A DNA stretch of 64,000 nucleotides from Minisyncoccota bacterium (GCA_018062445.1 JAGOSG010000001.1:122426-186425), one strand, 5' to 3'. Shown: positions 10,923 to 41,793, counted from the stretch's first letter. The notes: generated by a model not told the origin, from the sequence alone. Numbers and translations: made by a program.

Positions 10923-10964
10923 CTGTATAGTATAATTTAACGACCGTTAAATTATACTATACAG
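10923..10964. repeat. 42-bp hairpin palindrome CTGTATAGTATAATTTAACG-AC-CGTTAAATTATACTATACAG (copy 1 of 3); likely bidirectional terminator between convergent fmt and minus-strand small ORFs
   Basis: Perfect 20-bp arms with a 2-nt centre; followed by ACTTTTTT on the + strand. Confidence 0.6.
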
Positions 10965-11130
10965 ACTTTTTTCGATGTTTACCGCCTTGAGGATGATAGG
11001 AGCTTCCTTGGCGTCGTACCAATGCTATGAAAAGCGTGGCTATTTTGTCTGCAACTTCTGGTTCAAGGCTTGGATCAAATGGATTGAGCGTAGTTGGACT
11101 GAGTACTTCCTCTTTCTTTCCCTCTCCCAT
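10957..11130 (-). CDS. hypothetical small protein (about 57 aa, MGEGKKEEVLSPTTLNPFDPSLEPEVADKIATLF...), not in ORF track
   Basis: Hand translation of the reverse strand; stop codon lies inside the palindrome. Coordinates approximate. Confidence 0.3.
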   Translation of the reverse strand: MGEGKKEEVLSPTTLNPFDPSLEPEVADKIATLFIALVRRQGSSYHPQGGKHRKKSV

Positions 11131-11144
11131 ATTTTTGTTATATA

Positions 11145-11312
11145 AAAATCAAACTACTTGTCTGTGATCAAGATTTCAAATTCTGTTGCACTCACCTCAT
11201 GTATTCGTGCTTTTTGACCTGGATGGAGGTGTAATCTTTTTTTAATTTCTACAGCCTTGTCGGCCGTATCAGTCGTGATGTAGTGCCATTCTGTACTTGC
11301 GGGATTTCCTTC
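11145..11312 (-). CDS. hypothetical small protein (about 55 aa, MSNEGNPASTEWHYITTDTADKAVEIKKRLHLHPGQKARIHEV...), not in ORF track
   Basis: Hand translation of the reverse strand. Coordinates approximate. Confidence 0.3.
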
Positions 11313-11399
11313 GTTAGACATATTTTGTAGTGTTAGCCTTTAATAAAATATTATACCTTGACTAAGATGAGTGTCAAACAGTCAGTTTTAATATATATC

Positions 11400-12725
11400 T
11401 TAGCTAAGATATTCTCTAGTGAGATTTCGAATACCATTTTCTGTCACCAACACATCATCCTCTATGCGCACTCCACCGTAAGGCGCGAGGCGGTCAATAA
11501 GCTCCCAGTTGAAGTGTTTTGCAGTATCACCGCTTCTATGTGGACGAAGCAACATTTCAATGAAATACACACCTGGCTCTATGGTAAACACCTGCCCTAC
11601 TTCCACAACTCCCTTCGTTCGCAAATTTTTCGTATCTGGCGTATCTTTTGAATCTCTCTTTACTCCCCCAACATCATGCACTTGGAGTCCGAGCATATGT
11701 CCTACACCATGCGGAAAAAAGACTTTAGTTAGCCCGAGTTCGGAAGCTTCTTTCCCGTCAATTTTAAAAATACCGAACGAAAAAAGTAAGTCTCCAATTT
11801 TGAGGTGTGTTTCTTTTTGTAAGTCAGCAAAAGAAAGTCCTGGTTTTACGAGACCGCAAAGTTCCTGTTGTATTTTTTCAACTCCAGCAAGAAGTTCAAC
11901 AAAAAGAGGGTCGGCATCGGGTGCCACATATGTGCGCGTTATGTCTGATGCATAACCCAGATATCTTGCACCTGCATCCAGTAAAAGCGACTTGCCACTT
12001 TTTGGTTCTTTTCGTTTTCCTTGGTAGTGGAGAATTGAACCTTTTTCATTAAGAGCCACAATAGTTTCATAGGGCAACTCATACTCCACACCTCCCACTG
12101 CTTTCATATACGCCTGATGAATTTCAAGCTCTGATGCACCACCAAGAAATACCTCATGAGCACTCTTGTGTCCCTCCGACGCAATCCTATTCGCCTCGCT
12201 AATACAAGCAATCTCATATGGGGTTTTATAGCTCCTCTCCGTATCCAAGCGAGCAATAAGTTCGTCTGGGTTTATCGCTTTTTCATCAACCCCGTGCGCC
12301 TTCGCTTCAGCTGGATTATCCCCCATATACAGAAAACTTTTTATGTTCGATTTCGTAAGTCGAACATTTAGTTCTTTCCATGCGGAGTCAGGAGAAAATA
12401 CTTCAATGAACTCGAAATCGGAAAGCCAAAAAGGACTCCCAAGAGAAGCTTGCTCATGCCAATAATCATCAGGCTTAACACGAACCAAAAGAGGTTTAGT
12501 CCCTTTTTGAATTAAAAGAAAACTACCTGCTTCATTTAAAGGTGCGAAGTGTGCAAAATGCGGGTACGCACGAAACGGCGCATCTTGGTCATCGGCATAG
12601 TATCGAAGCGGAGTGCCGGAATAAATAATAAGCGCATCAAATCCTGAAACAGAAAGAATATCTAACACCTTTTGTTTTTGCTCAGTAATGTGAGCAGAAT
12701 AGAGAGAAAGAATCTCGTCTTTCAT
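11400..12725 (-). CDS. pepP: Xaa-Pro aminopeptidase (M24B family)
   Basis: HGVGHMLGLQVHDVGG metal-binding signature plus a creatinase-like N-domain; 441 aa. Confidence 0.8.
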   Translation of the reverse strand: MKDEILSLYSAHITEQKQKVLDILSVSGFDALIIYSGTPLRYYADDQDAPFRAYPHFAHFAPLNEAGSFLLIQKGTKPLLVRVKPDDYWHEQASLGSPFWLSDFEFIEVFSPDSAWKELNVRLTKSNIKSFLYMGDNPAEAKAHGVDEKAINPDELIARLDTERSYKTPYEIACISEANRIASEGHKSAHEVFLGGASELEIHQAYMKAVGGVEYELPYETIVALNEKGSILHYQGKRKEPKSGKSLLLDAGARYLGYASDITRTYVAPDADPLFVELLAGVEKIQQELCGLVKPGLSFADLQKETHLKIGDLLFSFGIFKIDGKEASELGLTKVFFPHGVGHMLGLQVHDVGGVKRDSKDTPDTKNLRTKGVVEVGQVFTIEPGVYFIEMLLRPHRSGDTAKHFNWELIDRLAPYGGVRIEDDVLVTENGIRNLTREYLS

Positions 12726-13093
12726 GAACCTCCAAACCCTCGGAAAAAATCTTTTATTTTTGTAGCACCACGGCGCATGAGCGTGCGCTTACGTCCGAAA
12801 GTTTTTCGGATTTCCCTTCGTGCTTCTTCAACTGCTACTTCAACTGCGTGATGGAGTGTTTCTTCTATCGCTTCCGCACGCACAAAACCACCAGCAAACT
12901 GCAAATTGATTTCAGCACGAAATACATCACCGGTTTTTTGTCCGCGCGTAGTTGTGGCAAGTTCTATATCCGCCATCGTGCTCGTATCTTTAGAATCGAG
13001 AAGATGTTCAATTTTACGCACCTTTTCCGCGACAAACTCACGGAGCTCTTCCGTTAAAACTACTGAACCGGTGGCTTTGAGATTTATGTGCAT
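12722..13093 (-). CDS. hpf: ribosome hibernation-promoting factor / RaiA family
   Basis: 123 aa; HINLKATGSVVLTEELREFVAEKVRKIEHLL... beta-alpha-beta pattern of the YfiA/HPF family. Confidence 0.75.
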   Translation of the reverse strand: MHINLKATGSVVLTEELREFVAEKVRKIEHLLDSKDTSTMADIELATTTRGQKTGDVFRAEINLQFAGGFVRAEAIEETLHHAVEVAVEEARREIRKTFGRKRTLMRRGATKIKDFFRGFGGS

Positions 13094-13102
13094 ACTTCCA
13101 AG

Positions 13103-13348
13103 TTATCTCTTATAAACTAATATCATCTTACTACGGGACTCAGAACCTTTTGTTATCATCACATTTTTCCTTGGCACACTAAAATGCTCTGCGATGAGCT
13201 GACAAACTTTCACATTTGCCCTGTTGGCTTCGGGTGGTTCCTTTACGCTAATTTCAAGCACTCCTTTCTTTCCTTCAGTAATACCGTCACGTTTTGCATT
13301 TGACGTAACACGTACACGAATCACCGTGGGTTCAATAGGACTTCTCAT
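13103..13348 (-). CDS. DUF167 (YggU-like) family protein
   Basis: 81 aa; IRVRVTSNAKRDGI...GVLEISVKEPPEANRANVKVCQLIAEHFSV fits the YggU pattern. Confidence 0.55.
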   Translation of the reverse strand: MRSPIEPTVIRVRVTSNAKRDGITEGKKGVLEISVKEPPEANRANVKVCQLIAEHFSVPRKNVMITKGSESRSKMILVYKR

Positions 13349-13405
13349 AACAATTAGCGCTGATTTTCAACATAGAGCCTTAACTCCATTGTAGCTCTTC
13401 ACTGC

Positions 13406-13437
13406 TAAAAATCGAGTAGTTGCCTACTCGATTTTTA
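13406..13437. terminator. intrinsic terminator hairpin AAAAATCGAGTAG-ttgc-CTACTCGATTTTT
   Basis: Perfect 9-bp stem flanked by an A-run and a T-run. Confidence 0.55.
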
Positions 13438-13458
13438 GATGAAGCACCTTGTGATGTA

Positions 13459-14217
13459 TTACTTCCAGAAATTGAAATGGAAGCGATCCTTGAAAGACTG
13501 TATTCTTTCTTTGAATATTTTTCGACCATTTGTATCCTCTCGAACTATCACAACCTTTGTAGCAGTGAGAACCTTTGTAGTGCTGTCGTAGGTACCTGAA
13601 ACCTTCGCTTGATCAGCCACTTTGATATTTGCGAAAGCAAAAGCAACATCGCCGTTAGTAATTACAGAATTTGTTGCAAGCTTTACAGTAATAAGACCTT
13701 CAACACCCTTGCTATCCAGTACGAATTTCATATTCGCTGTGTCAATACTTTGCACGCTACCGTTAAATGCTCGGGTATTTTCTGCCTGTACAGAACGCGA
13801 CCAATCTTTAACAGACTTAGCGTCTACGGTTAGTCCTGAGGTTCCTGTATTGAGGACTCCTCTGAAACTCACGTAGTCACCAGGGGAAATCGTTGAGAGT
13901 GACGACGATCCATCAGCACGATGCGTAAAGACAGTACTTGCATTTGTACGAACAGTCCACGAGAGTACTGTTGCACCAAACGCAGTCTCTGCACTAATCA
14001 CTGAACCAGATACAGCAGTGACTTTTGCCCCGCGAACAAGCACCGAATTATTATCTTCGATACGAATTTCAAGAGTTGAGCCAACCGCGTGTGGACCTGA
14101 CTTCTTATTACCTTCATTCCCATTTGCCGAAGCAAGAAAAGGGCTAATAAATAAGGAACCGAGCACGAGTAGTGCCACTGGCACTACGAGGGCGAAACGT
14201 TTAGAGATAGTGTACAT
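13459..14217 (-). CDS. hypothetical secreted protein (N-terminal signal peptide)
   Basis: MYTISKRFALVVPVALLVLGSLFISPFLASANG signal-like N-terminus; beta-rich repeats. Confidence 0.45.
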   Translation of the reverse strand: MYTISKRFALVVPVALLVLGSLFISPFLASANGNEGNKKSGPHAVGSTLEIRIEDNNSVLVRGAKVTAVSGSVISAETAFGATVLSWTVRTNASTVFTHRADGSSSLSTISPGDYVSFRGVLNTGTSGLTVDAKSVKDWSRSVQAENTRAFNGSVQSIDTANMKFVLDSKGVEGLITVKLATNSVITNGDVAFAFANIKVADQAKVSGTYDSTTKVLTATKVVIVREDTNGRKIFKERIQSFKDRFHFNFWK

Positions 14218-14335
14218 ATTTTTATGTGTGCACGCATACTGCGTGTCTTTTAGAATTAACGGCCTGTCATTCAGACCTACATACTAAGACGCTCGACCAC
14301 ACAGTCTCTTACTAGAACCCATCTAAAAACCGCCT

Positions 14336-15205
14336 TTAATTGACAGTACCAATCTCTACACTAAGACTCTCTGTTGCTTTTCGTGAAGCTTGCGCAAAAT
14401 CAGCTCCGCTCGATGCAAAGATAATACTTCTTGATGCACTAATCATCATTCCAAAACCCTTGCTGTCTTTTCCCGCCATGACTGTCTTTTGAATATCTCC
14501 ACCTTGCGCCCCAACTCCCGGAATCAAAATGGGCATGTCGCCAATAACGGATCGCACCTCGGCAAGCTCTTCAGGATAGGTTGCACCAACCACTACACTA
14601 CAGTTTTCATTTGCATTCCATGAGCTTGCGATATTTCTTGCTACCACCCTGTAGAGTGGCTCTCCAGAATCAGTAACTTTTAAATTTTGAAATTCTTCTC
14701 CTCCCGAATTTGAAGTTTTCACCAAAACAATAACCCCCTTATCTTTACGATCAAGAAATGGTTGAACTGCTTCTTTTCCTAGATATGGATGGATAGTAAT
14801 AGCATCTGCCCCAAGCTCATCAAAAACGGCCTTTACATAGTAAAGGTTGGTATTACCAATATCAGCTCGCTTTGCATCTAAGATAATTGGAATTTCTGCA
14901 TACGCATCCTTGATGTGTGCCACTGTTCGCGCAAGGGCTCGTGCTCCGGCTTCTCCATGTGCTTCATAAAATGCCACATTTGGCTTATACGCGCACACAA
15001 GATCAGCGGTGGCATCTATAATTTCTCTATTGAAGGTAAAAAGAACCTCTTCAATTGATGAATTTTCTGCCTTGAGAATATCGGGGATTTGTGAAAAATC
15101 GGGATCGAGGCCAACACAGATCATGCCAACCTGCGACCAGCGATTGTGTATTTTTTCTATAAAAGTGGCTTCTTTCATAAGTCTTTTGTAAAAAAGAAGG
15201 TTCAT
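14336..15205 (-). CDS. pyrF: orotidine 5-prime-phosphate decarboxylase (type 2)
   Basis: ICVGLDP ... DAKRADIGNT substrate-binding motifs; 289-aa long-form OMPdecase. Confidence 0.75.
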   Translation of the reverse strand: MNLLFYKRLMKEATFIEKIHNRWSQVGMICVGLDPDFSQIPDILKAENSSIEEVLFTFNREIIDATADLVCAYKPNVAFYEAHGEAGARALARTVAHIKDAYAEIPIILDAKRADIGNTNLYYVKAVFDELGADAITIHPYLGKEAVQPFLDRKDKGVIVLVKTSNSGGEEFQNLKVTDSGEPLYRVVARNIASSWNANENCSVVVGATYPEELAEVRSVIGDMPILIPGVGAQGGDIQKTVMAGKDSKGFGMMISASRSIIFASSGADFAQASRKATESLSVEIGTVN

Positions 15206-15243
15206 TATACGAGTAAGACCGTATACCTTGCGCCCATGATACT

Positions 15244-15444
15244 ATGAATGAGTATAATTATTTAATAAATAAGCACCACACTATGGAGCCAGTTATAGGA
15301 TATTGCGTTAAGTGTAAAGAGAAGCGTGAAATGAAGGACGCTGAGGAGGTCGCTATGGGTAAAACCGGAGACCGCCGTGCCATGAAAGGTACCTGCACCG
15401 TATGTAGTACGGGTATGTACAAGATTCTCGGCAAGGCAAAATAG
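15244..15444 (+). CDS. small zinc-ribbon protein (CxxC...CxxC; DUF5679-like)
   Basis: GYCVKCKEKREMKDAEEVAMGKTGDRRAMKGTCTVCSTGMYKILGKAK. Probable true start is the ATG at 15284. Confidence 0.5.
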   Translation: MNEYNYLINKHHTMEPVIGYCVKCKEKREMKDAEEVAMGKTGDRRAMKGTCTVCSTGMYKILGKAK

Positions 15445-15454
15445 TTTTTAACTC

Positions 15455-15490
15455 AAAAAACACCCGCACCTACAGTGCGGGTGTTTTTTG
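15455..15490. terminator. bidirectional intrinsic terminator AAAAAACACCCGCAC...GTGCGGGTGTTTTTTG
   Basis: GC-rich 9-bp stem with an A-run upstream and a T-run downstream. Confidence 0.65.
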
Positions 15491-16360
15491 TTTATGCTGA
15501 CTCAATAACAACACACCTAAAAACATAGGTACGAATGCAAAAACTTGCCATACGGTTGGGACTGCATTCAAAAGTACATAGGCAAAGATTAACGTAACGA
15601 GAGGCGAAAGACTTGCTAGGGCGTTTGCCTTCGTAACACTAATACGGTGTATACCTTCTATCCAAAGAATTTTGCTAAATCCAAAAAGAAAAATACCGTT
15701 AATCAAAAGAACCCATAAGATTCCGCCATCAAAATTAATACTGAGAGGATTTGTGCCGAAGGCATACGCAAGGCAAAAAACTGCGACAGTTGTAACAACA
15801 CTACGAACAAACATAATGCTTTCACTAGATACTTCCCTCCTTGCCCTTCTTTGTAATAAATTACCAAAGGGTGCAATCAAGGATGCTCCAAGAATAAGAA
15901 GATCCCCTATTTGGAATGCGTGTATATTAGGATAGAGAATTACTCCTGCGGCAAAAATCATTAACACAGCTCCAATAAGATGGACTGGTGGGATATGTTC
16001 TTTTCTAAATAAATGAAAAAAACAGTAACTAAAAAATAATTCCGACAGTGCAATAATGCTTGCGTTCCCTGCGCTCGTATACTGCAAACCAAAAAAGAAA
16101 AGTATGTAGTAAAGGAAACCTAAAACAAATGCGGTAAGAAGTACATCTTTCATTGCGCGAGGATTCCATACATCTGACCACTTTCCACGCACAGTAAGTA
16201 GAACGCCAAACACAACAGATGCCAGAAGAGTACTCCAACCCAAAGACACTAGCGGTGTGAGTGAGGTGAAAGAAAGAATGGTAATAACAGGGAAAGCTCC
16301 CCATAAAACCGCTTCAGAAAGAATGCATAAATCGCCAACGCGTTGAGATCCAAGTTTCAT
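15470..16360 (-). CDS. EamA/DMT-family transporter
   Basis: 296 aa, about 10 predicted TM helices in two EamA-like halves. Confidence 0.7.
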   Translation of the reverse strand: MKLGSQRVGDLCILSEAVLWGAFPVITILSFTSLTPLVSLGWSTLLASVVFGVLLTVRGKWSDVWNPRAMKDVLLTAFVLGFLYYILFFFGLQYTSAGNASIIALSELFFSYCFFHLFRKEHIPPVHLIGAVLMIFAAGVILYPNIHAFQIGDLLILGASLIAPFGNLLQRRARREVSSESIMFVRSVVTTVAVFCLAYAFGTNPLSINFDGGILWVLLINGIFLFGFSKILWIEGIHRISVTKANALASLSPLVTLIFAYVLLNAVPTVWQVFAFVPMFLGVLLLSQHKQKTPAL

Positions 16361-16410
16361 AATCTCACTAGTATATATGGATACAGAAAGAAAATGATAG
16401 GATTAAAAAC

Positions 16411-17124
16411 ATGGAAATAATCAGGAACCTAAACGAGGAGGTATTGAAACAGAAAGCTGGTGCGTACTTCTCTTCCCTACTCATGAAAATGGAGAGCGAG
16501 CCTGCTTTGATTCTTTTTTCGAGTGGCTCTGCCCTTGGAATCCTTATGCATGTCACCGCACCTGAAAACACATCCAACCTTACACTTGGTGTTTTAGATG
16601 AGCGATTTACGAAAGATCCAAAAGAAAATAATTTTGCAACTCTGAAGGAAACAAACTTCTTTAAAAACGCAGTAACAAGAGGCGCGCGTGCCATTGATAC
16701 AAGTATGCGATTTGAAAGAGTCGAGACACTAGCAACCACTATGGAGCAGGCGTGGAGGAAATGGATTGAGGAAAATCCAACAGGACATATACTCGCAACA
16801 TTCGGCATGGGTGTAGATGCCCATACTGCGGGCATTATGCCGTATTCGGAAGATACGGGAATGTTTGAGATACTTTTTGAAGACGAAAGGAGGGCTGTTG
16901 TTGGGTACGATGCTCGTGGAAAAAATCCCATACCACTTCGAGCAACCGTCACACTCCCCTTTCTACGCAAACACATTACGGGAGGAGCGGGCTATATAAC
17001 TGGAGTGAATAAAAAACCAGCCCTTGAACGCACACTAGCCCAGAGTGGGACATACGCGGAAACACCCGCAAGAGTGTTCAGTGATATACCCGCATTCGCT
17101 CTCTTTACAGACATCATGCTCTAA
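16411..17124 (+). CDS. 6-phosphogluconolactonase / glucosamine-6-P isomerase family protein
   Basis: GMGVDAHTAGIMPYS resembles the GxGxDGHTAS(L/I)FP motif of Pgl/NagB. Minus-strand ORF 16368..16976 is its shadow. Confidence 0.5.
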   Translation: MEIIRNLNEEVLKQKAGAYFSSLLMKMESEPALILFSSGSALGILMHVTAPENTSNLTLGVLDERFTKDPKENNFATLKETNFFKNAVTRGARAIDTSMRFERVETLATTMEQAWRKWIEENPTGHILATFGMGVDAHTAGIMPYSEDTGMFEILFEDERRAVVGYDARGKNPIPLRATVTLPFLRKHITGGAGYITGVNKKPALERTLAQSGTYAETPARVFSDIPAFALFTDIML

Positions 17125-17532
17125 AAAATAAGCGTGATATCATTATTTTCATAAAGTGACATATGTGGCTACTTTATTAAAATAATCTATACACCATGGA
17201 TTTCGTACAGTTATTTCAACAGTTTTTTTCTCTCATTGTGCAAATAGTTCAATTTTTTATAAACCTCATCCTGTTCATTCTTTCACTTCTCACGCCTATC
17301 GTGAATGCCATACTTGCCGCATTCCAATAACACAAAACTATGTTTGACCTCTTCGGCATAAGAAAGCGGATGGCTCGCGAACAAGAGCTCTACCTTGAAG
17401 AGCTAGCAACTGTAGAAAATAGCACTACACAAGTGAATGAAAAGACGGACACCCAGTGGTCTACGGTAAATCAGCTCGACGGACTAAAATAGATTTTAGA
17501 AAAAAACTTTTTAAAAAATCTCCTGACGGAGT

Positions 17533-17907
17533 TTATATTTTGTGTATTCGTGATTCAAGAATCTGCACATCAATACTGTATGGCTTTCTAAATGTAATTA
17601 GGTGATATAAAAAATAAGGCACCATGTCTAAAAAGAAGTGAGGAACAGCCATAACAAAAAATTTATTAAGGTTCCCAAAATCATAGTGAACCTCAACTAA
17701 GGAACCTGATTTTATTGCGTGAATGTGTCTAAATGTCCCTGGTGTTCTATAGTTTGTTTTTCTATTGAGTGCGTGAAAAACCTTCACAAAATGTACTTCG
17801 TATTCATCAAAAACTGTAGAATCCACAATCAGTAGCTCTCGATGAAAAATGCGAGATGCCCCTATAGACTTTGTCTTTAACTCTCGATATACATCGGTGG
17901 CATTCAT
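17533..17907 (-). CDS. hypothetical protein
   Basis: ORF only. Confidence 0.35.
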   Translation of the reverse strand: MNATDVYRELKTKSIGASRIFHRELLIVDSTVFDEYEVHFVKVFHALNRKTNYRTPGTFRHIHAIKSGSLVEVHYDFGNLNKFFVMAVPHFFLDMVPYFLYHLITFRKPYSIDVQILESRIHKI

Positions 17908-17975: not shown

Positions 17976-19124
17976 TTACTGAGATTTATAAGAAGCAACG
18001 ACCAAATTGATTACACTAGTCGGTATGGTCTCTCTCCCTTCAAACCAGCCCCGAGCACGTTGAACGTCTTCCTTTGAAAGGGTTTTTTGAAGCTCATCAA
18101 AGAAGTTACTGGCTTTCCCTGCATGAATATCAGTAAGAATTTTTTCTACACTAGTACCAGCGCGTGACTCCTGCAGCATGCCATCAACCGCAAGCATCGA
18201 AAGTGGGGCGAGCACGTAATGTCCATACTGATAATCGAGGTTCGGAGAACCCGGCGCAACAATCACACTTTGCCTAATTTTCTCAAAGGCTTTTTGATTA
18301 TTAAAAGGCGCTTCTTTTATAAGTGAAAAGTTTTGAGTTCTAAGCGCCGTATGAACACCATAGAGATACACAATACGTCCTGATCGCTCTGCAGAAGTAG
18401 TAAATGCTGTTTCTGCCCAAGTAGCCTCAACCTCCTGCCAATCTTCTTCTGTAAAGGGCGACTGTAACTTTTGATAAGGTAGTGCGCCATTCTGATGCCT
18501 GTTGTAAAGGTGCATTACTGCGTGAATGAAGAGTTCCTCTCCGCGAAGACTATCTGATGTGCGCACGAAAGCACTAACTCTTGCGCTTGGGTCTGGATAC
18601 ACATGTGTAGCATCTTCGTCTGCATTTCCAGCAAGGCCTGCAGTAATAAGAACCACATGCGGAACCCGTTGTTCTTTAGGAATATCATTAAACAATTTCC
18701 CTGTGCGATTGAATGCATTTTCAATAATGGCAACATACCGTTGTATCGAATTTTCTGTTGTGGTTACGGGATATAAAATATCTACCCTATATATGCTGTG
18801 TTTCGGCTGAATACTCTGTAGTGTGAATGCATCGGAGCGAATAAGAACGCCCGTCAAGTTTGTCTCAAATTTCGCCCATCCAACGCCAGTCTCTATGGCA
18901 CCAACAGCTTCCCAACCTTGTGGCACACACACAGGTCGGTTTTTGTGGTCAAAACTTTTGAGTATGTCGCCAGACCAGATGCGATACCCTTGTGAGCCTG
19001 CAATAGGTTTCAGATAATCAGGAACTTTGTAACATTCCCCTCTAAGAATAGGTATGAAATAAACAGTTACTGCCAATAATGCCGAGAGAGCAAGCACGCC
19101 GATGGCTATCAATACTTTCTTCAT
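17976..19124 (-). CDS. hypothetical secreted/membrane-anchored protein
   Basis: MKKVLIAIGVLALSALLAVTVYFIP N-terminal anchor; 382 aa; no family recognised. Confidence 0.45.
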   Translation of the reverse strand: MKKVLIAIGVLALSALLAVTVYFIPILRGECYKVPDYLKPIAGSQGYRIWSGDILKSFDHKNRPVCVPQGWEAVGAIETGVGWAKFETNLTGVLIRSDAFTLQSIQPKHSIYRVDILYPVTTTENSIQRYVAIIENAFNRTGKLFNDIPKEQRVPHVVLITAGLAGNADEDATHVYPDPSARVSAFVRTSDSLRGEELFIHAVMHLYNRHQNGALPYQKLQSPFTEEDWQEVEATWAETAFTTSAERSGRIVYLYGVHTALRTQNFSLIKEAPFNNQKAFEKIRQSVIVAPGSPNLDYQYGHYVLAPLSMLAVDGMLQESRAGTSVEKILTDIHAGKASNFFDELQKTLSKEDVQRARGWFEGRETIPTSVINLVVASYKSQ

Positions 19125-19131
19125 ACAAAAA

Positions 19132-19236
19132 GTATACCCCGTGAGATATGAAATTTATACTTTGGTCAAAATTATTTTCTTCTGCGAGGATCCAGCACAC
19201 ATCGTACGTAGTGCCTTGCTATCTCATGGGGTATAC
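19132..19236. repeat. about 105-bp element with 16-bp terminal inverted repeats GTATACCCCGTGAGAT / ATCTCATGGGGTATAC (copy 1), directly upstream of the start codon of 17976..19124
   Basis: Seen directly; same arms as 36974..37079, interior unrelated. Confidence 0.6.
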
Positions 19237-19259: not shown

Positions 19260-19284
19260 ATTACCCCCGAAAGGATAGAAAAAT

Positions 19285-19330
19285 AGCTGTATAGTATAAA
19301 GTAACGACCGTTACTTTATACTATACAGCT
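19285..19330. repeat. 46-bp hairpin palindrome AGCTGTATAGTATAAAGTAACG-AC-CGTTACTTTATACTATACAGCT (copy 2 of 3)
   Basis: Perfect arms; arm-internal differences from copy 1 are compensatory. Confidence 0.6.
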
Positions 19331-20828: not shown

Positions 20829-20832
20829 ATAT

Positions 20833-28808: not shown

Positions 28809-30449
28809 TCAGGAAAAATGTAAGTTCGGCCATTCGTCTTCGAGTTTTGAAACAAGAAAGTCGCCGGATACACGCTCCGGGAAAATGACATAGTCAGCAC
28901 CGGCATCTCGAAGTACTTGCTCCTGATCGGCTTCGTCGGTACGCACCACGATTTGCGCCTTCACATTACTTATCCGGCAGGCATCAAGAAGTGCGAGGTT
29001 GTCTCTTGTCCCACCTGCTGTTGAAATAATGAGATGGGCCGTATTGAGCTGCAGGTTCGCCAGTATTTCAGAGTCACTCACATCGCCATAGAGCGCATGG
29101 TAGCCTTGCGCACGCAAGCGTCGCACCGCCGTAGGATTATAGTCAAGAACGAGCACTTCTATCTTCGCCTTTTTCAAATACTCTATGACTACGGTGCCCA
29201 CCCTGTCAGCGCCAACAACGACAACATGTCCAGACAGCGGTGGAAGAATCGCATCGGGCAATACATCAACCGCTTCTTTTCTCTGGAATCGTGCGACGAA
29301 GGGTTTCATGAATGTGTAGATAGACTCAGAATGATTCATAAGTGTTGACGAGAAGATTATAGAAAGCACAGCAGAGCCGGCAATAATTGCAAGTGCGGAC
29401 TCCGAGGCGAAACCATGTTCGACGGCCAACAGGACAACAATCAGAGAGAACTCGGATACCTGCGTCATGTTTAGAGACGTCTGGAAAAGAGTGTGTTTGC
29501 GGAATTTGAAGAAACTTAAACCAACCAGATATGCAAATGGTTTCATAAAAAGAGCGAGCGCGGTGAATCCGAAGATTATCGGCAGAGAATTTGTGATGCC
29601 CGCAAGGTCAACTTGGGAGCCGATATATATGAAGAATAATGCAACAAAGAAATCTCTGATTGGTTTTACTTTAGCCTGAATCTGAATCTGATACGGGGAA
29701 GAAGCGAGCGCAACACCTGCCAAAAATGCACCGATGACAACCGAAAAGCCAGCCAAAACCGCAACAGAGGTAAAGATAAAGCACCATGTAATAGCGGCGA
29801 GGAACAATAACTCGACAGACTTCGCCATCTTATTAAACAGGAACGGCAGTACGAAACGAGATATGAGGAACGCTGCACTAATCAAAGCTATTGCCTTAAC
29901 CGTAAATATAAGGAGGGGCATAAGAATTGCAGTGCTCCACCCGAAAGAAATAAGATTTCTAGTTATAGCAACCATCACGATAATGGCCACGAGGTCTTCA
30001 ACAAGGAGAATGCCGATGGAAAGTTTCCCATATAAAGACGCTGTATCGCGTCTTTCAGAAAGCATCTTAGCGATAACAATCGTCGAAGCGAACGCGAGCG
30101 AGATGCCTAAGATTGCCGCCTCAGTTCCAGAGAAACCAAAAAACGTTGCCAACGTAAAACCGGCGACAGAAGAGACTACAATTTGGAAAAGCGTCGCTAC
30201 GATAATAGGGCGCCCTAGAGAGCGAATCTCACTCAAATTGAGCTCCATCCCAATCAAAAACAACACGAACGCTATACCTATTTCAGGAAGGGTGTGTAAG
30301 ACAACTGAATCAGAAAGATTATATGCAGAAAGCGCCACTCCAGCTAAGAGATACGCCATAACCAAAGGAAGTCGGAATCGCATTGCTGTGTATCCAATAA
30401 CACAAGCCACCGAAAGCATAATGGCAAGCTCCAAAAAAACGCTGTTCAT
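28809..30449 (-). CDS. monovalent cation:proton antiporter (CPA2, Kef-type) with C-terminal RCK/TrkA-N domain
   Basis: About 12 TM helices plus VVVVGADRVGTVVIEYLKK...LVLDYNP Rossmann RCK domain. Confidence 0.8.
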   Translation of the reverse strand: MNSVFLELAIMLSVACVIGYTAMRFRLPLVMAYLLAGVALSAYNLSDSVVLHTLPEIGIAFVLFLIGMELNLSEIRSLGRPIIVATLFQIVVSSVAGFTLATFFGFSGTEAAILGISLAFASTIVIAKMLSERRDTASLYGKLSIGILLVEDLVAIIVMVAITRNLISFGWSTAILMPLLIFTVKAIALISAAFLISRFVLPFLFNKMAKSVELLFLAAITWCFIFTSVAVLAGFSVVIGAFLAGVALASSPYQIQIQAKVKPIRDFFVALFFIYIGSQVDLAGITNSLPIIFGFTALALFMKPFAYLVGLSFFKFRKHTLFQTSLNMTQVSEFSLIVVLLAVEHGFASESALAIIAGSAVLSIIFSSTLMNHSESIYTFMKPFVARFQRKEAVDVLPDAILPPLSGHVVVVGADRVGTVVIEYLKKAKIEVLVLDYNPTAVRRLRAQGYHALYGDVSDSEILANLQLNTAHLIISTAGGTRDNLALLDACRISNVKAQIVVRTDEADQEQVLRDAGADYVIFPERVSGDFLVSKLEDEWPNLHFS

Positions 30450-30542
30450 AGAAAGAATTATACCCTGAACAAAGCTCTATTAATACCTAGAGATATAAAA
30501 AGGAGTTTAGATTAACTCATTCGTCATTGGAGCGAACGTGGG

Positions 30543-33879: not shown

Positions 33880-33897
33880 ATGTTAAAAAGTTACTTT

Positions 33898-34860: not shown

Positions 34861-34866
34861 AATAAA

Positions 34867-34903
34867 TCAGCTTTCAGGTTATAGGTTCCAGGTTCCAGCT
34901 TTT
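34867..34903. repeat. dispersed short-repeat family, copy R6 (CAGCTTTCAGGTTATAGGTTCCAGGTTCCAGCTTTT)
   Basis: Seen directly, upstream of glpX. Confidence 0.6.
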
Positions 34904-34951
34904 AAATAAATATGAAAAAGGGACACGGGAATCATACCACTCACCTCACAG

Positions 34952-36202: not shown

Positions 36203-36220
36203 CCTTTATACTGGAGAAGT

Positions 36221-36847
36221 ATGTTTGACCTTACAAAGCAGGAACTCGCCACCTTAAAAAAACTCTCAACTCCAATTAAGATTCAGGATTTTTTAGATAC
36301 CCTTCCTATCAACTACGAAAAGAAAGGAGAAACACATATGTCGCCACGAAGGGTACTTCGTGAGAAAAAAGCACACTGCATTGAAGGAGCGCTCTTAGCA
36401 GCTACGGCACTGTGGATCAATGGTGAAGAACCCCTCCTTATGGACCTTACTGCAGCGCCCGAAGATGATGACCATATTGTTGCTCTCTATAAAAAAAATG
36501 GCTACTGGGGTGCAATTTCAAAAACAAATCATGCAACGCTCCGTTTTAGAGACCCTATATACAAAACACTTCGTGAACTCGCACTCTCCTACTTTCACGA
36601 ATGGTTTCTCGATGAGAACGGACTCAAGATGCTCCGAAGTTATTCAAAACCACTTAATTTGAAACGACTCGGCACCGCTTGGGTTACCGCAGAGGAAGAT
36701 TTGTGGTACCTCGATGAACATTTAGATACCTTGCCACATTTTTCACTTCTACCAAGGGAAAATAAAAAACACATCCGCCCTGCAGACAAAATGGAGAGGA
36801 CTGCTGGCAACCTTCGTGAGTGGAATAAGAAAAATAAAAGAACATAG
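36221..36847 (+). CDS. transglutaminase-like cysteine peptidase superfamily protein
   Basis: AHCIEGALLAATALWINGEEP (Cys motif) and DHIVALYKKNGYWGAIS (His motif) resemble the transglutaminase-core Cys-His pair. Confidence 0.45.
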   Translation: MFDLTKQELATLKKLSTPIKIQDFLDTLPINYEKKGETHMSPRRVLREKKAHCIEGALLAATALWINGEEPLLMDLTAAPEDDDHIVALYKKNGYWGAISKTNHATLRFRDPIYKTLRELALSYFHEWFLDENGLKMLRSYSKPLNLKRLGTAWVTAEEDLWYLDEHLDTLPHFSLLPRENKKHIRPADKMERTAGNLREWNKKNKRT

Positions 36848-36892
36848 AAAACACACCGAACAACACCATGGCCTATTCTTCAATTATGATTT

Positions 36893-36927
36893 ATATATCC
36901 CTAATTCGTGCGAATTAGGGATATATA
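36893..36927. repeat. 16-bp-stem inverted repeat TATATATCCCTAATTCG-tg-CGAATTAGGGATATATA (possible weak terminator)
   Basis: Seen directly; no T-run follows, so terminator function is uncertain. Confidence 0.35.
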
Positions 36928-36973
36928 AAAATGCAGAGATGTGGATACATATAGGATTGGTTTTTTGTTGCAT

Positions 36974-37079
36974 GTATACCCCGTGAGATGGTAGATCAGA
37001 GAATACGCACTAGCGAAAATTTTGATGTGATAAAAATTCTATCCTTTTCCACACGAACATAGTATCTCATGGGGTATAC
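36974..37079. repeat. about 105-bp element with 16-bp terminal inverted repeats GTATACCCCGTGAGAT / ATCTCATGGGGTATAC (copy 2), ending 9 nt before the ATG of 37089..37394
   Basis: Seen directly; arms identical to copy 1, interior unrelated. Confidence 0.6.
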
Positions 37080-37088
37080 TACCCGCTC

Positions 37089-37394
37089 ATGAGCGAACTA
37101 CAATTTCCTGACATACAGCCCAATATTCTCGTACTTGATGACTCACAAGATACTGCAGAACAACTGAAGCAATTTGTTTTTCATGTTGAAAATGGTGATT
37201 ACTTTGCAATGCTTGCAACACTCTTAGGATTCGTTGAAGAAACAGCAAGTAAACTTGAGGAAAAAGATGAAGCGATGAAAATTGCCGAGATGCAGATTGC
37301 TCGTCTCCGCAAAAACTTGCAGTACCTTCACGAAAACTACAACATCACACCAAAGAAGAAACCTGTTATAGCTGAACCAACGCTCGACCTCTAA
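37089..37394 (+). CDS. hypothetical acidic coiled-coil protein
   Basis: ORF only; convergent with lexA. Confidence 0.4.
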   Translation: MSELQFPDIQPNILVLDDSQDTAEQLKQFVFHVENGDYFAMLATLLGFVEETASKLEEKDEAMKIAEMQIARLRKNLQYLHENYNITPKKKPVIAEPTLDL

Positions 37395-37402
37395 GAACGT
37401 GT

Positions 37403-37969
37403 CTAATATTTTCTAATCACGCCACGCACAATTGCGGCGATAGTGAGTTCGTCTTCAGGATAAATTGGCTTGTAGGCAGTATTTGCTGGCTCCAAATATG
37501 GCTTACCCTTTTTCATTCGGAAATATTTCATCGTCCATCCACCATCAACTTCAGCAATGACTATCTCCCCTTCTTTTGCGACAGTTGCTCGCTCTGCAAT
37601 AACCATGTCGCCCTCCACAATGCCCGCATCTTTCATAGAGTCGCCTTTCACTCGCAACAGATACGTCTGTTCACGATCGCGAATAAGATAGTCATCTAAT
37701 GAAATACTATCAAGTACCTCCTCTTCAGCAGTTGCAGGCATGCCAGCTTCTACAAGACCTAAGATTTTTATTTCTCCCAAGACTGTTGTGGGAATAAGAC
37801 GCCCTCGGCGGTCTTTCTTTAACTGTCCTCGGCGCACTAAACGCTCAACCAATTTGAATACAGAATCCTTGGAACGCAGACCTGTGATATCCATTATTTC
37901 GGCATACGAAGGCATGCGCCAACGAGACCTATAAAATTGGAGAATCTCTCTCAAATATGAAGTATCCAT
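37403..37969 (-). CDS. lexA: LexA repressor (S24 peptidase)
   Basis: N-terminal winged helix plus VKGDSMKDAGIVEGDMVIAE Ser-Lys dyad region; 188 aa. Confidence 0.85.
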   Translation of the reverse strand: MDTSYLREILQFYRSRWRMPSYAEIMDITGLRSKDSVFKLVERLVRRGQLKKDRRGRLIPTTVLGEIKILGLVEAGMPATAEEEVLDSISLDDYLIRDREQTYLLRVKGDSMKDAGIVEGDMVIAERATVAKEGEIVIAEVDGGWTMKYFRMKKGKPYLEPANTAYKPIYPEDELTIAAIVRGVIRKY

Positions 37970-37983
37970 TTACACAGTATAAG

Positions 37984-37997
37984 CGAACGAACGTTCG
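37984..37997. promoter_or_regulatory. Cheo-type SOS box CGAACGAACGTTCG (CGAAC-N4-GTTCG) 15 nt upstream of the lexA start
   Basis: Matches the CGAACRNRYGTTCG LexA operator consensus; position fits autoregulation. Confidence 0.6.
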
Positions 37998-38034
37998 CCG
38001 TGCAAGGAAGTTATACACTCCTCACCTAACGACT

Positions 38035-39120
38035 TTAATTAAAGACCTTAGAAACAAGCTTCTTGAGCTGGGTGCGCAAATTAACTACAGGAGCATTTGC
38101 ACCTACATAACGCTCAACATTGCCCGCAAACATATCAGCTGAATGTTCCCACGAAAACGTAAGTGCTTTTTCACGACACTTCTCTCGCGAGAGTGTTAAA
38201 CATTTTTTAGCAGCCTCAGTGAGATCATCGCTCAAAAATCCATCGATTCCATTTTCAATAACATCCTTTGGTCCCATAACATTGTGTGCGGCAACTGGAA
38301 GACCACATGCAAGTGCCTCAAGTACCACTAAACCAAATGTTTCAGTACGCGAAGGAAAAACGAAAACATCAGACGCTGAGAGAATGTCGATAAGCTCCTG
38401 CCCTCGCTTGTAACCAAGAAATACATTTTTCTTACCATACCTTCGTTCCAATTTTTTTCGCTCTGGCCCATCCCCTATCACCAGTTTTGTACCAGGAAGT
38501 TCCATGCTCAAAAATTCCTCAACACTTTTCTCTTTTGCAATTCTTCCAAAATATACAAACACCGGGTGAGGAAATTTTACCTCTGCTCTCTTTTCTTCAT
38601 TTGGCTTGAAAACAGTAGTATCAATACCTGGTGGCCATAGAACAACATTCTTAAAATTATGCGCCTCGAGCTCGGCCTTTAAAGTATCATTACTTGCCAT
38701 AACCGCCTCAGCGCTACTATGAAACCAAGACATGTACACTCGAGAAAAAACGGCAAGCAGTGTCCCCCCAAATATGTAATGAGGAAGGTATCGGGGAAAA
38801 TTGGTGTGATATGAGGTAGTGAATGCAATACCTCTCCCCTTTAGCAATGATCGAGCTGAAAGCCCCAGTGTCCACTCAGTTGCAATATGCACATAGTCTG
38901 GCTGAACTGAATCAAATATCTTTTTCATTTTCCTATCAGGAAAAAATGTCATAGAGATTTCTGGGTACAGCGGAAATGGGAACGCAATAAAAAGTCCTGG
39001 ATGCACAACAGTAACTTCGAAATCACGCTCTTTAAGATATGGAATAGTTCGCTCAAAGAGCGTTACCACTCCATTCACCTGCGGCGCCCAAGCGTCAGTG
39101 ACTATAATGAGTTTCTTCAT
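38035..39120 (-). CDS. glycosyltransferase family 4 protein
   Basis: GT-B fold; C-terminal half shows the GT4 E-x7-E-like region (FPSRTETFGLVVLEALACGLPV). Confidence 0.75.
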   Translation of the reverse strand: MKKLIIVTDAWAPQVNGVVTLFERTIPYLKERDFEVTVVHPGLFIAFPFPLYPEISMTFFPDRKMKKIFDSVQPDYVHIATEWTLGLSARSLLKGRGIAFTTSYHTNFPRYLPHYIFGGTLLAVFSRVYMSWFHSSAEAVMASNDTLKAELEAHNFKNVVLWPPGIDTTVFKPNEEKRAEVKFPHPVFVYFGRIAKEKSVEEFLSMELPGTKLVIGDGPERKKLERRYGKKNVFLGYKRGQELIDILSASDVFVFPSRTETFGLVVLEALACGLPVAAHNVMGPKDVIENGIDGFLSDDLTEAAKKCLTLSREKCREKALTFSWEHSADMFAGNVERYVGANAPVVNLRTQLKKLVSKVFN

Positions 39121-39245
39121 GCAGTAGAAATTATTTCAGGAAAAATACCGCCAACGGGTTTACTTATTCAATGATACCTTGAATTCTCTTAGAAAAAAAT
39201 GATTAATCTTTCATTCCCAAACTCACCTATGTTACACTTTGATTA

Positions 39246-40649
39246 ATGTCTGACTTAGGAGAAAAGTGTGGCGTTTTTGGAGTTTATGGGAAAGGAATGG
39301 AGGCTGCGCGTCTCACCTTCTTCGGACTCTACGCCTTACAGCATCGAGGTCAAGAAAGCTCTGGGATTGCCACATCAAACGGAGAAACTATTTTCTGTCA
39401 TAAAAAAATGGGCCTCGTCGCTCAAGCGTTTGCCGAAAAAGACATTCAACGCCTCGTAGGTCACATTGCTGTTGGACATAACCGCTACTCAACTTCAAAA
39501 TCTTCACAGCTCAAACACTCGCAACCTACACATATAGAAGATGTTGGCCTCACCTTAGTACATAACGGCAACATTCCTTCAACTACTCTTCTTGAGAATT
39601 TCCTTGCTTCAAAAAATATTGCCTACAAAACACTTTCTGACTCTGAAATGATTGCAGAGGCCATTGCGGTCCATATGCGCGAAGGTTCTACTCTAGAAGA
39701 CGCTGTCCCAAAAACATTTCCCCTCCTTACAGGGGCATTTTCTATTCTATTAATGGATAAACATAACCTCGTCGCCATCAGAGATAATTACGGTATTCGT
39801 CCACTCTCTATAGGTACCTTAAATGGTGGGTTTGTTTTTTCATCGGAAACATGCGCATTCCATCCCATTGGAGCCGAGGAACTCCGTGATGTACGCCCTG
39901 GAGAAATGATTATAGTAAATGAGAGCGGTATGCGTTCTGTTCAAATTGCGATGGGCATTCAAAAGCTTGATATATTCGAATTCGTGTATTTTGCACGGCC
40001 AGACTCAGTACTTCTTGGCAAGTCAGTCTATGGTGTTCGTAAAAACTTTGGTATTGAACTTGCGAAAGAGTTTCCATTAGACGCTGATGTGATTATTCCA
40101 GTTCCAGAAACAGCAATGCCTGTTGCGATAGGCTACTCTCAAGCATTGGGGATTCCGCTTGAAACAGGGCTCATAAAAAATCGCTATATACACCGCACAT
40201 TCATTCAACCAGAACAACATATTCGTGAGCAGGGCGTAAAAATAAAACTCACCCCACTACCAGAGGTCATCAAAGGGAAGAAGGTTGTGGTCATAGATGA
40301 CTCAATAGTTCGCGGGACAACTTCTAGGCAAATTGTGCAAATGCTTTTCGAAGCAGGAGCGAAAGAAGTAAACTTCCTCGTCAGCTCACCTCCTGTACGA
40401 TTTCCTGATTTTTACGGTATTGATACACCAACCCAAAAAGAGCTCATTGGCGCACAAAAAACACCTGAAGAAATACGAGAATACCTTGGTGCAACACGAT
40501 TACACTTTCTTTCATATGACGGCTTGATTCGTGCAACAGGTCTACATCCCGATATGTTTTGCACTTCATGCTTCACTGGCGAATATCCAATAGATATTAA
40601 AGAGCGCGTCACTGAAATTCATTCACTTCCTACTGCGAAACTTTTTTGA
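39246..40649 (+). CDS. purF: amidophosphoribosyltransferase
   Basis: N-terminal Cys nucleophile (KCGVFGVYG), Ntn glutaminase domain and PRTase motif VVVIDDSIVRGTTSRQIV; 467 aa. Confidence 0.85.
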   Translation: MSDLGEKCGVFGVYGKGMEAARLTFFGLYALQHRGQESSGIATSNGETIFCHKKMGLVAQAFAEKDIQRLVGHIAVGHNRYSTSKSSQLKHSQPTHIEDVGLTLVHNGNIPSTTLLENFLASKNIAYKTLSDSEMIAEAIAVHMREGSTLEDAVPKTFPLLTGAFSILLMDKHNLVAIRDNYGIRPLSIGTLNGGFVFSSETCAFHPIGAEELRDVRPGEMIIVNESGMRSVQIAMGIQKLDIFEFVYFARPDSVLLGKSVYGVRKNFGIELAKEFPLDADVIIPVPETAMPVAIGYSQALGIPLETGLIKNRYIHRTFIQPEQHIREQGVKIKLTPLPEVIKGKKVVVIDDSIVRGTTSRQIVQMLFEAGAKEVNFLVSSPPVRFPDFYGIDTPTQKELIGAQKTPEEIREYLGATRLHFLSYDGLIRATGLHPDMFCTSCFTGEYPIDIKERVTEIHSLPTAKLF

Positions 40650-40691
40650 GTAGATTTGAGACGCAGAATTTACGACCCAAAAGATAAAAAC

Positions 40692-40739
40692 GCCATATCT
40701 TATAGGCATATTCGCACGAATATGCCTATAAGATATGGC
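40692..40739. terminator. 23-bp-stem perfect hairpin GCCATATCTTATAGGCATATTCG-cac-CGAATATGCCTATAAGATATGGC between convergent purF and the methyltransferase
   Basis: Seen directly; A-rich upstream, T-containing downstream. Confidence 0.55.
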
Positions 40740-40768
40740 AACGTTTACTATCGTTTCTAATAAAAAAA

Positions 40769-41674
40769 TCAATTAGACCACCTCGCAAAAATTCCTGCAG
40801 GCAATAGACGTCCACTACTCGACTCTTCAATAGTTAATTCTCCTAGCTCCACACCTCCGCCATTTTTTTCAATAATTGATTCTAGGTTGTGTGCAAACGC
40901 AAGCGATGAATACCCCGCAGCGTATCCGCTCACCAGTATGAATATAGGCTTGTCTGACAGAAGTGCTTTACAGAGTTTCATAAGCGTTAGAAAGTTCTCC
41001 TCGATTTTCCACAACTCATCTTTTGGTCCATGGCCAAAAGCAGGAGGATCCATAATAATCGCGTCGTAAGTATTCTTTCGCTTTGCTTCCCTCTCCACAA
41101 ACTTCATTACATCCTCCGTAACCCAACGAATTGGTTTTTCATTCAAACCAGAAAGTTTTGCATTCGCCTTTGCCCATTCAATCGCTGTTTTTGATGCATC
41201 AACATGTGTAACTTGCGCACCAGCTTTTGCGGCAGCGAGCGTTGCCCCACCTGTGTATGCGAAGAGGTTTAATACTTTAGGTGCCTGGTTCCAGCTGTCA
41301 GCTGTCAGCTTCTGCTGAATCCATTGCCAATTAGGAACCTGCTCTGGGAAAAGACCAGTATGCTTGAAAGAAGTAGGGCGAATAATAAAATTCAACTCAC
41401 CAAGTTCAATGTGCCATTCTTTTGGGAAATCCTTTCCGGTATGCCAATCACCTCCCTTTGTTTTGCGTTCGTACCACGCATCTGCTCGCTTCCACTCCTC
41501 ATCTCCTAGATGCTTCTCCCACAGTGCCTGCGGATCAGGCCGAGCCAGCACTATGTTCCCGTACCTTTCGAGCTTCTCTTCCCGACCAGAGTCAAGAAGT
41601 TCATAATCTTTAGAAGGCTTTGTCGTCAATATGCTGTGTAACATTTCCTCCATGCTACCCCATGAATGCACCAA
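40769..41674 (-). CDS. class I SAM-dependent rRNA methyltransferase (RlmI/YccW-like)
   Basis: VLNLFAYTGGATLAAAKAGA motif I, IIMDPPAF motif IV. Contains the in-frame dispersed repeat at 41283..41315. Confidence 0.7.
   Translation of the reverse strand: MVHSWGSMEEMLHSILTTKPSKDYELLDSGREEKLERYGNIVLARPDPQALWEKHLGDEEWKRADAWYERKTKGGDWHTGKDFPKEWHIELGELNFIIRPTSFKHTGLFPEQVPNWQWIQQKLTADSWNQAPKVLNLFAYTGGATLAAAKAGAQVTHVDASKTAIEWAKANAKLSGLNEKPIRWVTEDVMKFVEREAKRKNTYDAIIMDPPAFGHGPKDELWKIEENFLTLMKLCKALLSDKPIFILVSGYAAGYSSLAFAHNLESIIEKNGGGVELGELTIEESSSGRLLPAGIFARWSN
41283..41315. repeat. dispersed short-repeat family, copy R7, in-frame inside the RlmI-like CDS (encodes ..QQKLTADSWNQAP..)
   Basis: CTGGTTCCAGCTGTCAGCTGTCAGCTTCTGCTG; the ORF stays open through it. 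Confidence 0.6.
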
Positions 41675-41751
41675 TTGGTAGACATCTGGAAATAATTAAA
41701 TGAAAAAACATATGAACGGGATGTTTTGTCTCCTCATAAGTACATGACATT

Positions 41752-41793
41752 CTGTATAGTTTAATTTAACGTTCGTTAACTTAAACTATACAG
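41752..41793. repeat. 42-bp hairpin palindrome CTGTATAGTTTAATTTAACG-TT-CGTTAACTTAAACTATACAG (copy 3 of 3), in a divergent promoter region
   Basis: One arm mismatch; same outer CTGTATAG...CTATACAG ends as copies 1-2. Confidence 0.55.

Follow-up and report, generated by a model that had tools for sequence, protein, structure and literature searches.

The genomes of Patescibacteria are tiny, streamlined and poor in repeats, and to our knowledge almost nothing is known about their transcription signals. The closest described systems for the element reported here are the repetitive extragenic palindromic (REP) sequences and the bidirectional intrinsic terminators. REPs are short extragenic palindromes that are dispersed between unidirectional or convergent genes and lie for the most part downstream of coding regions; their transcripts plausibly form hairpins, and roles in termination and mRNA stabilisation have been proposed for them (PMC3733652). 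We analysed a 64-kb stretch of a Minisyncoccota bacterium genome (JAGOSG010000001.1:122426-186425, called the window below), which carries three copies of a 42-bp palindrome, called P. P is a small family of intergenic hairpin repeats in a narrow Patescibacteria (Paceibacterota) lineage and represents a new family within a well-known class of elements, and by analogy it appears to resemble both REP elements and bidirectional intrinsic terminators in its working. With moderate confidence, we lean towards the reading that P is a dispersed, sequence-conserved hairpin module that would act chiefly as RNA, by forming the stem of factor-independent terminators at gene boundaries. In the literature, our searches found neither the P sequence in a relevant context nor a link between REPs or their REP-associated tyrosine transposases (RAYTs) and the Candidate Phyla Radiation (CPR).

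Like the REPs and bacterial interspersed mosaic elements (BIMEs) of Proteobacteria, P is intergenic, shows hairpin covariation and occurs in terminator-like contexts, and its spacers, chiefly tandem and convergent, are of the kind that REPs occupy. REPs, however, are imperfect palindromes with an unpaired GTAG or CGTC tag at one end, have over 100 copies per genome and are associated with RAYTs, whereas P is an untagged, near-perfectly symmetric 42-mer with 5-18 copies per assembly (3 in the window). P starts with CTGT and ends with ACAG, no recurrent tetranucleotide was seen in the flanks of the 66 copies collected (see below), and no RAYT-like gene was found in the collected sequence. Like bidirectional intrinsic terminators, copy 1 and about a dozen other P sites combine a hairpin and a G/C clamp with an A-tract before and a T-tract after them, and two-sided tracts are concentrated at convergent genes. 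Ordinary terminators are short, GC-rich and mutually unrelated, whereas P has an AU-rich stem of 19-20 bp whose sequence is conserved across sites and species; also unlike ordinary terminators, in half of the tandem P copies the tract is antisense, and in some copies it is missing.

The pattern CTGTATAGT-N24-ACTATACAG had three exact matches in the window, at 10923-10964, 19287-19328 and 41752-41793, and none in 100 dinucleotide-preserving shuffles (0 expected vs 3 observed), which confirmed the three palindromes that an earlier note on this DNA had pointed out. The half-site 9-mer CTGTATAGT occurs in the window only inside these palindromes. No further window copy was found by a 20-mer arm search with 3 mismatches or by a family-built covariance model with filters off, in which the three copies scored 64-71 bits and the next-best matches, two other long palindromes, scored 19 bits and 17 bits (16.8). 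Folding of the three copies as RNA gave -19 to -31 kcal/mol with z from -4 to -8.7.

Copy 1 (10923-10964; no palindrome is assigned to a strand) has perfect 20-nt arms around an AC centre, and with its flanks (10916-10971) it reads AAAACCC[P]ACTTTTTT. It lies 35 nt past the fmt stop codon in a convergent context, where fmt on the plus strand faces a small open reading frame (ORF) plus a peptidase gene on the minus strand; it has syntenic counterparts in four other genomes, folds at -23.7 and -24.7 kcal/mol (z about -8), and was flagged as terminator-like on both strands by a consensus scan. Copy 2 (19285-19330, with the 42-bp core at 19287-19328) has perfect 22-nt arms, again around AC, and lies 55 nt past the stop codon of a YjbQ-family gene with tandem minus-strand genes on both sides. 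The A-run at 19279-19283 beside it gives a U-tract on the minus (gene) strand, the consensus scan flagged the minus strand only, and the RNA folds at -30.6 kcal/mol (z -8.1). Its inner variant AAAGTAACG is matched by a compensating change in the opposite arm and is identical in the orthologous locus L016 (L-labels denote individual collected loci outside the window), and a protein encoded next to copy 2 recurs unchanged in several metagenome assemblies and on one contig from GCA_017992865.1; the window has the look of a Patescibacteria genome. Copy 3 (41752-41793) has 20-nt arms around a TT centre and sits between a divergent S-adenosylmethionine (SAM)-methyltransferase gene (minus strand) and an ABC-transporter ATPase gene (plus strand), 32 nt before the ATG at 41826, with a folding energy of -19 kcal/mol (z -4). 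Its A-to-T change at arm position 10 is compensated, while that at position 14 (T41765/C41780) is an uncompensated mismatch, which is also present at the same site in L041 and is replaced by a perfect version in L042. The convergent, tandem and divergent contexts given in the earlier note were thus borne out, and its description of near-perfect palindromes with centres AC, AC and TT holds for all three copies, with the one mismatch in copy 3. Its statement that inner changes always affect both arms is true for copy 2 and for position 10 of copy 3 but was slightly too strong for copy 3, because T41765/C41780 is uncompensated.

The first scan for related loci covered one genome per species with the outer 9+9 bases specified and returned 38 loci, 32 of which were in four Patescibacteria/Paceibacterota assemblies (VMHB01, JBBAAE01, SCTS01 and JAZJYZ01). 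Two more were on single short contigs labelled Simkania sp. (L011) and Candidatus Saccharibacteria (L007), which are probably misbinned contigs of the same P-bearing lineage, because their genes are approximately 94% identical to those of the Paceibacterota assemblies. The inner 24 bases were palindromic again in the Patescibacteria, Simkania- and Saccharibacteria-labelled loci, with 0-3 arm mismatches; the Spirulina and Ferruginibacter matches were non-palindromic, with 4-8 mismatches. The second scan covered metagenomes with the left arm and centre specified and the right arm left free, and its result was bimodal, with 34 matches that had a complementary right arm (0-6 mismatches), all from two metagenomes, and 14 chance matches with 10-14 mismatches. 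A scan of viral contigs gave three matches, none of them palindromic. After removal of duplicates there were 66 non-redundant copies from the window and five related assemblies, so the family reaches beyond the three copies on which the earlier note was based. The copies per assembly were 5, 10, 12, 16 and 18, which are lower bounds since the counts are pattern-based. The P-bearing genomes are close relatives, with flanking proteins 88-97% identical. The centre was AC/GT in 43 copies, AT in 21 and AA/TT in 2, with nearly all differences being transitions, and 21 of the 66 copies were gap-free perfect palindromes.

Covariation was analysed in 38 distinct sequences. A standard pair was formed in 95.5% of the cells, and 8 of the 20 stem pairs changed on both sides, in 44 cells; this level was reached by 0 of 500 shuffles, and sliding the pairing abolished the covariation. 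The covarying arm positions were 2, 3, 9, 10, 14, 15, 17 and 18, and among them positions 10, 14, 15, 17 and 18 and their partners had been left free in both collection scans. The other 12 positions were invariant (C1, TATAG at 4-8, TAA at 11-13, T16, C19 and G20, the last in all but one sequence). In 43 orthologous pairs, identity was 96.3% in the arms, 61.6% in the centre dinucleotide and 71.6% in the flanks of 50 nt on either side, and because the arms are more conserved than both this internal and this external reference, the comparison indicates that they are under purifying selection. The proposal of the earlier note that the constraint acts on the hairpin and not on a symmetric protein site therefore gained support from the wider family, through the covarying pairs and through the conservation of the arms beyond that of centre and flanks. 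Template switching from arm to arm corrects quasi-palindromes and is a mutational route to symmetry, so it could yield "compensatory" double changes without selection; but it would not slow the evolution of the arms, and therefore selection is still needed. Wobbles at arm mismatches were G.U on the transcribed strand 7 times versus 2 times on the other strand, which is weak evidence. As a separate observation, the P arm has stop codons in all three frames (TAG at 6-8, TAA at 11-13 and TAA at 16-18), with the variable positions 9-10 and 14-15 forming the gaps between them. All six frames are closed by P in 65 of 66 copies, whereas among composition-matched shuffled arms the proportion that achieves this within 20 nt is only 3.6%.

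The reading of P as a terminator stem is drawn from the polarised extension of the helix, the enrichment of T-tracts and the two-sided tracts at convergent sites. The helix reaches past P by a mean of 1.46 bp, compared with 0.55 bp in the control (p = 8e-6), and runs into site-specific flanks. The added pairs are polarised (C:G 42 vs G:C 6; A:T 37 vs T:A 7), and this polarised extension gives AAAACCC[P]GGGTTTT, which is read in copy 1 and about a dozen other sites. The polarity matters because it is only with A or C on the left and G or T on the right that transcripts of either strand have a U-tract on the 3' side of the hairpin. Tracts with at least 6 T within the 8 nt after the hairpin were found on 28.5% of the sides and in 9.1% of the nearby background (p = 1e-9), a three-fold enrichment. 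T-tracts on both sides were present at 5 of 15 convergent sites vs 1 of 38 other sites (p = 0.005), and at 24 of 30 tandem sites one side, and one only, had a T-tract. With 26-31% GC the core stem is AU-rich, and the extension pairs at its base are mostly C:G. The terminator-like look that the earlier note had seen in copy 1 fits this picture, since that copy was flagged on both strands and the flanks of the family extend the helix in the polarity of a terminator.

On the terminator reading, the AU-rich stem of 19-20 bp with a 4-nt loop (G-R-Y-C) would form in the transcript, and where the locus supplies a C/G clamp and a T-tract in the arrangement given above, transcription would stop at P. 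Between convergent genes termination would occur in both directions, and elsewhere in one. Copies whose T-tract is antisense lie shortly before the promoter of the next gene and may stop divergent or antisense transcripts from entering the upstream gene, which would be the role of an antisense insulator. If P works in this way, the family would provide testable landmarks for transcript ends in uncultured organisms, and it could improve the annotation of operons and terminators in Patescibacteria metagenome-assembled genomes. It is also a clean natural example of stem covariation plus presence/absence turnover among close relatives.

The location of the copies was examined with crude longest-ORF gene calls, by which approximately 82% of the sequence is coding. 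All copies of the family are intergenic, and many sites are syntenic, including those downstream of fmt (copy 1), upstream of a gene for 382 amino acids (copy 2), in the divergent methyltransferase/ABC spacer (copy 3), and upstream of parB, ychF, recR, holA, pheS and an Rv2179c-like exoribonuclease gene. P lies 35-130 nt past stop codons. The P-bearing spacers (n = 52) were 31 tandem, 15 convergent and 6 divergent, vs 99, 33 and 42 for the other spacers of at least 80 nt, which means that P spacers were richer in convergent and poorer in divergent pairs (p = 0.087). For promoters, we also surveyed 49 long ORFs of the window (e.g. 28812-30476, 17979-19154 and 52752-53870), in each case over the 45 nt that precede the first ATG. 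A TAnnnT motif, often gTATAAT or gTATACT, ended 5-10 nt before the ATG in 29 of the 49, and a Shine-Dalgarno-like motif was present in 7. The promoters seem to abut the start codons, and this layout therefore suggests that most mRNAs of this genome are leaderless; the literature search surfaced no description of a leaderless promoter layout in Patescibacteria. With a -10-like box about 7 nt before most ATGs, P would lie upstream of the promoters and not in 5' untranslated regions.

Several observations weigh against the terminator reading. Over all copies, the T-tract had no association with the direction of the incoming gene (p = 0.26-0.5), and at tandem sites it was on the sense side in 11 cases and on the antisense side in 13, so the simple rule that the T-tract follows the incoming gene was abandoned as unsupported by the family-wide data. 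Some conserved copies lie between divergent promoters without a T-tract, among them a parB site and copy 3, which has no T-tract on either side and no terminator flag on either strand in the consensus scan. Complementarity up to the 2-nt centre, as in the 21 gap-free copies, is a feature that DNA-level palindromes show more typically than RNA hairpins do. Ordinary terminators, short and GC-rich, are present in the genome as well, which makes the need for a conserved 42-mer questionable.

The T-tract-less divergent copies and the complementarity up to the centre keep a DNA-level reading alive, in which P is a double-stranded DNA site or cruciform for a symmetric sequence-specific protein (a global regulator, an insulator or roadblock, or a nucleoid protein) and the symmetric changes arise by template switching at positions that the protein does not read. 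We consider this unlikely, and the evidence is divided. The 12 invariant positions of the 20 in the arm are what such a site would show, as is the evolution of the arms about 7 times more slowly than the flanks, but selection on pairing alone can also slow the evolution of a stem. Besides the pairing up to the centre, which is limited to AT, AC or GT, this reading draws on conserved copies in divergent promoter regions or 30-150 nt before starts (parB, recR, holA, ychF and the exoribonuclease gene), on one copy upstream of a winged-helix-like gene, and on two variants that flank a PaaX-like gene. However, 15 of the 52 P spacers are convergent and have no promoter to regulate, the adjoining genes are heterogeneous housekeeping genes without a common functional theme, the polarised extension with C/G clamp and T-tract is left unexplained, and no candidate binding protein was identified. 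An operator of a transcription factor with its regulon was rejected on related grounds, namely the heterogeneous genes, the 29% of convergent spacers and the covariation of the variable positions between the arms.

A reading that joins the protein to the hairpin takes P as more than a reused terminator stem, namely as the recognition hairpin of a putative dedicated protein, e.g. an HUH enzyme that has been domesticated or a factor that binds RNA or DNA of a specific structure, within a genome-wide "punctuation" in which a six-frame-stop hairpin would stop antisense transcription upstream of promoters and sense transcription at gene ends, in a largely leaderless lineage. We regard it as rather unlikely. 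A dedicated binding or mobilising protein, if there is one, would extend REP-like biology to a new phylum.

It is likewise rather doubtful that P is mainly a selfish or mobile REP- or miniature inverted-repeat transposable element (MITE)-like hairpin, copied in trans (e.g. by a HUH/Y1 transposase) and mostly without host function, with use as a terminator being an occasional exaptation. In favour of it, the triple-compensated inner variant AAAATCACG/CGTGATTTT is found at several non-orthologous sites and in several genomes, and this recurrence implies that it was copied from site to site and did not arise by independent mutation. Filled and empty orthologous sites exist at rplI, recR, parB and msrA among genomes whose proteins are 88-97% identical; at rplI, P is present in VMHB01 and the site is empty in three others. 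A composite of at least approximately 100 nt is also common to some non-orthologous sites, and it consists of CTTAAATCAAATAA, an A-rich stretch, P, TACAAACAAGAAAAAGCTGGCACCTG, heptads and the start codon. In the class with the antisense tract the composite reads CTTAAATCAAATAA, 15-20 A-rich nt, P, nTACAAACAAGAAAAAGCTGGCACCTG, AAACCTG-type heptads, a -10-like box and the ATG. Composite sites with the T-tract on the antisense side are L040 1440-1700, L017 1300-1580, L027 5215-5480, L043 3800-4000 and others, and they lie upstream of recR, holA, rplI and the exoribonuclease gene.

Other observations speak against this reading. The rplI indel is approximately 90-100 nt and comprises P plus a left module, at the apex of a hairpin made by inverted heptad arrays, and the filled/empty comparison gave ragged boundaries or unalignable flanks, with no target duplication and no clean 42-bp unit. 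The MITE idea raised in the earlier note therefore found no support, since no direct repeats flank the copies. The window region 36760-37100 was considered as an ortholog of the P-bearing alkA site of L024 and was rejected because the regions are unalignable, which left no clean empty site. Past the first few bp the flanks do not form inverted repeats (median z 0.47), and a longer inverted repeat or terminal inverted repeats centred on P were discarded on the same ground. The GTAG or CGTC tag is lacking, the copy number is low, synteny across species and purifying selection hold for most sites, and the viral contigs had no palindromic copies. A tblastn search of the collected partial sequence for an IS200-type transposase gave no match, which is weak evidence. 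Genes that are flanked by two P copies encode a PaaX-like protein and small unknown proteins, not transposases. At L065 10068-10811, the divergent P variants CGATATAGT... and CAATATAGT... flank a gene for 193 amino acids with the PaaX central Cas2-like domain, which adjoins a TrwB/HerA-like ATPase gene.

The weakest alternative, that P is an element of RNA processing or stability (an RNase III cleavage mark between cistrons, or a protection of 3' ends from exonucleases), could draw on the perfect duplex of 19-22 bp (20 bp of perfect duplex being the size of an RNase III substrate), the many copies conserved without a sense-side U-tract, the distance from stop codons and the position of P at some loci as the apex of a longer hairpin of inverted heptad arrays, but we find it quite improbable, because RNase III is little sequence-specific and would leave the conserved sequence unexplained, the enrichment and polarity of the T-tracts are not accounted for, and copies between divergent, apparently leaderless promoters may be untranscribed.

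Other described elements resemble P in part. Compact organelle genomes, e.g. those of sponge mitochondria, have families of hairpin-forming repeats in intergenic regions, which are regarded as selfish invaders (PMC2800124). These repeats are like P in that they colonise the intergenic regions of small genomes, whereas P is conserved, lies mostly at syntenic sites and goes with T-tracts, and the genomes and sequences differ. The half-site of P recalls uptake sequences in that a repeated sequence occurs as an inverted pair and forms a hairpin after genes. The DNA uptake sequences (DUS) of Neisseria and the uptake signal sequences (USS) of Haemophilus form terminator-like hairpins after genes as inverted pairs, and they occur in hundreds to thousands of copies, mostly single; Patescibacteria are thought to depend on DNA uptake. 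The half-site of P, however, is never alone and P has 5-18 copies, and an uptake sequence was rejected since CTGTATAGT occurs only within the three palindromes and its 1-mismatch matches in the window were 10 vs 11 expected.

Further candidates were also rejected. A sigma-70 promoter formed by the TATAGT/TATAAT boxes inside P lacks a -35-like hexamer at the right spacing in the flanks (best mostly 1-3/6), and for these boxes as a promoter there is no start codon at leaderless distance. P is unlike the 16-bp TGTTNCACGTGNAACA-type palindrome of parS, which clusters near the origin, and the copies of P are spread over 289-619 kb of the 749-kb contig JAZJYZ010000001.1. In Rfam only a tRNA reached the threshold in the window, and copy 1 had only sub-threshold matches to generic hairpins (miRNA precursors). 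The tandem interspaced guide RNA (TIGR) arrays of the CPR have tandem two-spacer stems and box C/D next to tas, whereas P is solitary, has a 2-nt centre and leaves no room for a spacer. A resemblance of the inner ATTTAAC/GTTAAAT and the TGTATA motif of P to integron attC and dif sites was dropped, because the layout differs and the inner variants of P break the motif. A phage origin was dismissed because the viral-contig scan gave only non-palindromic chance matches.

The parB loci L006, L028, L036, L088 and L090 encode full-length ParB with N-terminal, helix-turn-helix and C-terminal domains, and in four genomes P sits shortly upstream of parB. A search of approximately 570 kb of collected sequence, the surroundings of parB included, gave no canonical parS at up to 2 mismatches. 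Next to copy 1, the small ORF that converges on it (10957-11130, minus strand, 57 amino acids) has its TAG stop inside the right arm of P; its region is kept in L014 and L015, and from the alignment a -10-like TATAAC lies 6 nt before its ATG, which suggests that it may be a gene.

The two other long palindromes of the window, which are outside the P family, were a 48-bp perfect palindrome with 23-nt arms at 40692-40739, between the convergent purF and methyltransferase genes, and a 40-bp perfect palindrome with 19-nt arms and the apex TTCG-tg-CGAA at 36890-36929. The first is the 19-bit match to the P model (E 0.03) and has an ortholog at L041 21-58 with a compensated change; the second is the 16.8-bit match and differs by three compensated changes from a related copy at L024 4269-4308. 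Both have a 2-nt centre, which flips between ca and tg, and the same WWCG-NN-CGWW apex as P; this CG-NN-CG apex is all that they share with it. Related genomes also have very long perfect palindromes with 2-nt centres that are unrelated to P in sequence, at L032 3071-3128 (28-nt arms) and L024 2153-2200 (23-nt arms).

The heptad arrays and the apparently leaderless layout may be the more unusual features of this genome. The arrays have 3-5 repeats of AAAGCTG, AAACCTG or AACCTAG and of the complements CAGCTTT or TAGGTTT, right after stop codons and right before start codons, and in the window they were found at 832-905, 2654-2682, 3229-3265, 7357-7419, 9360-9444, 34875-34898, 49460-49493, 52110-52133 and 60099-60132. 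In a spacer the left array is inverted relative to the right one, and base pairing between the two can form a long, imperfect hairpin. Heptad arrays also flank genes in related genomes, and at some loci P is at their apex. The heptad-related motif AGCTGGCACCTG had 20 matches in the window with up to 2 mismatches, compared with 3.8 expected.

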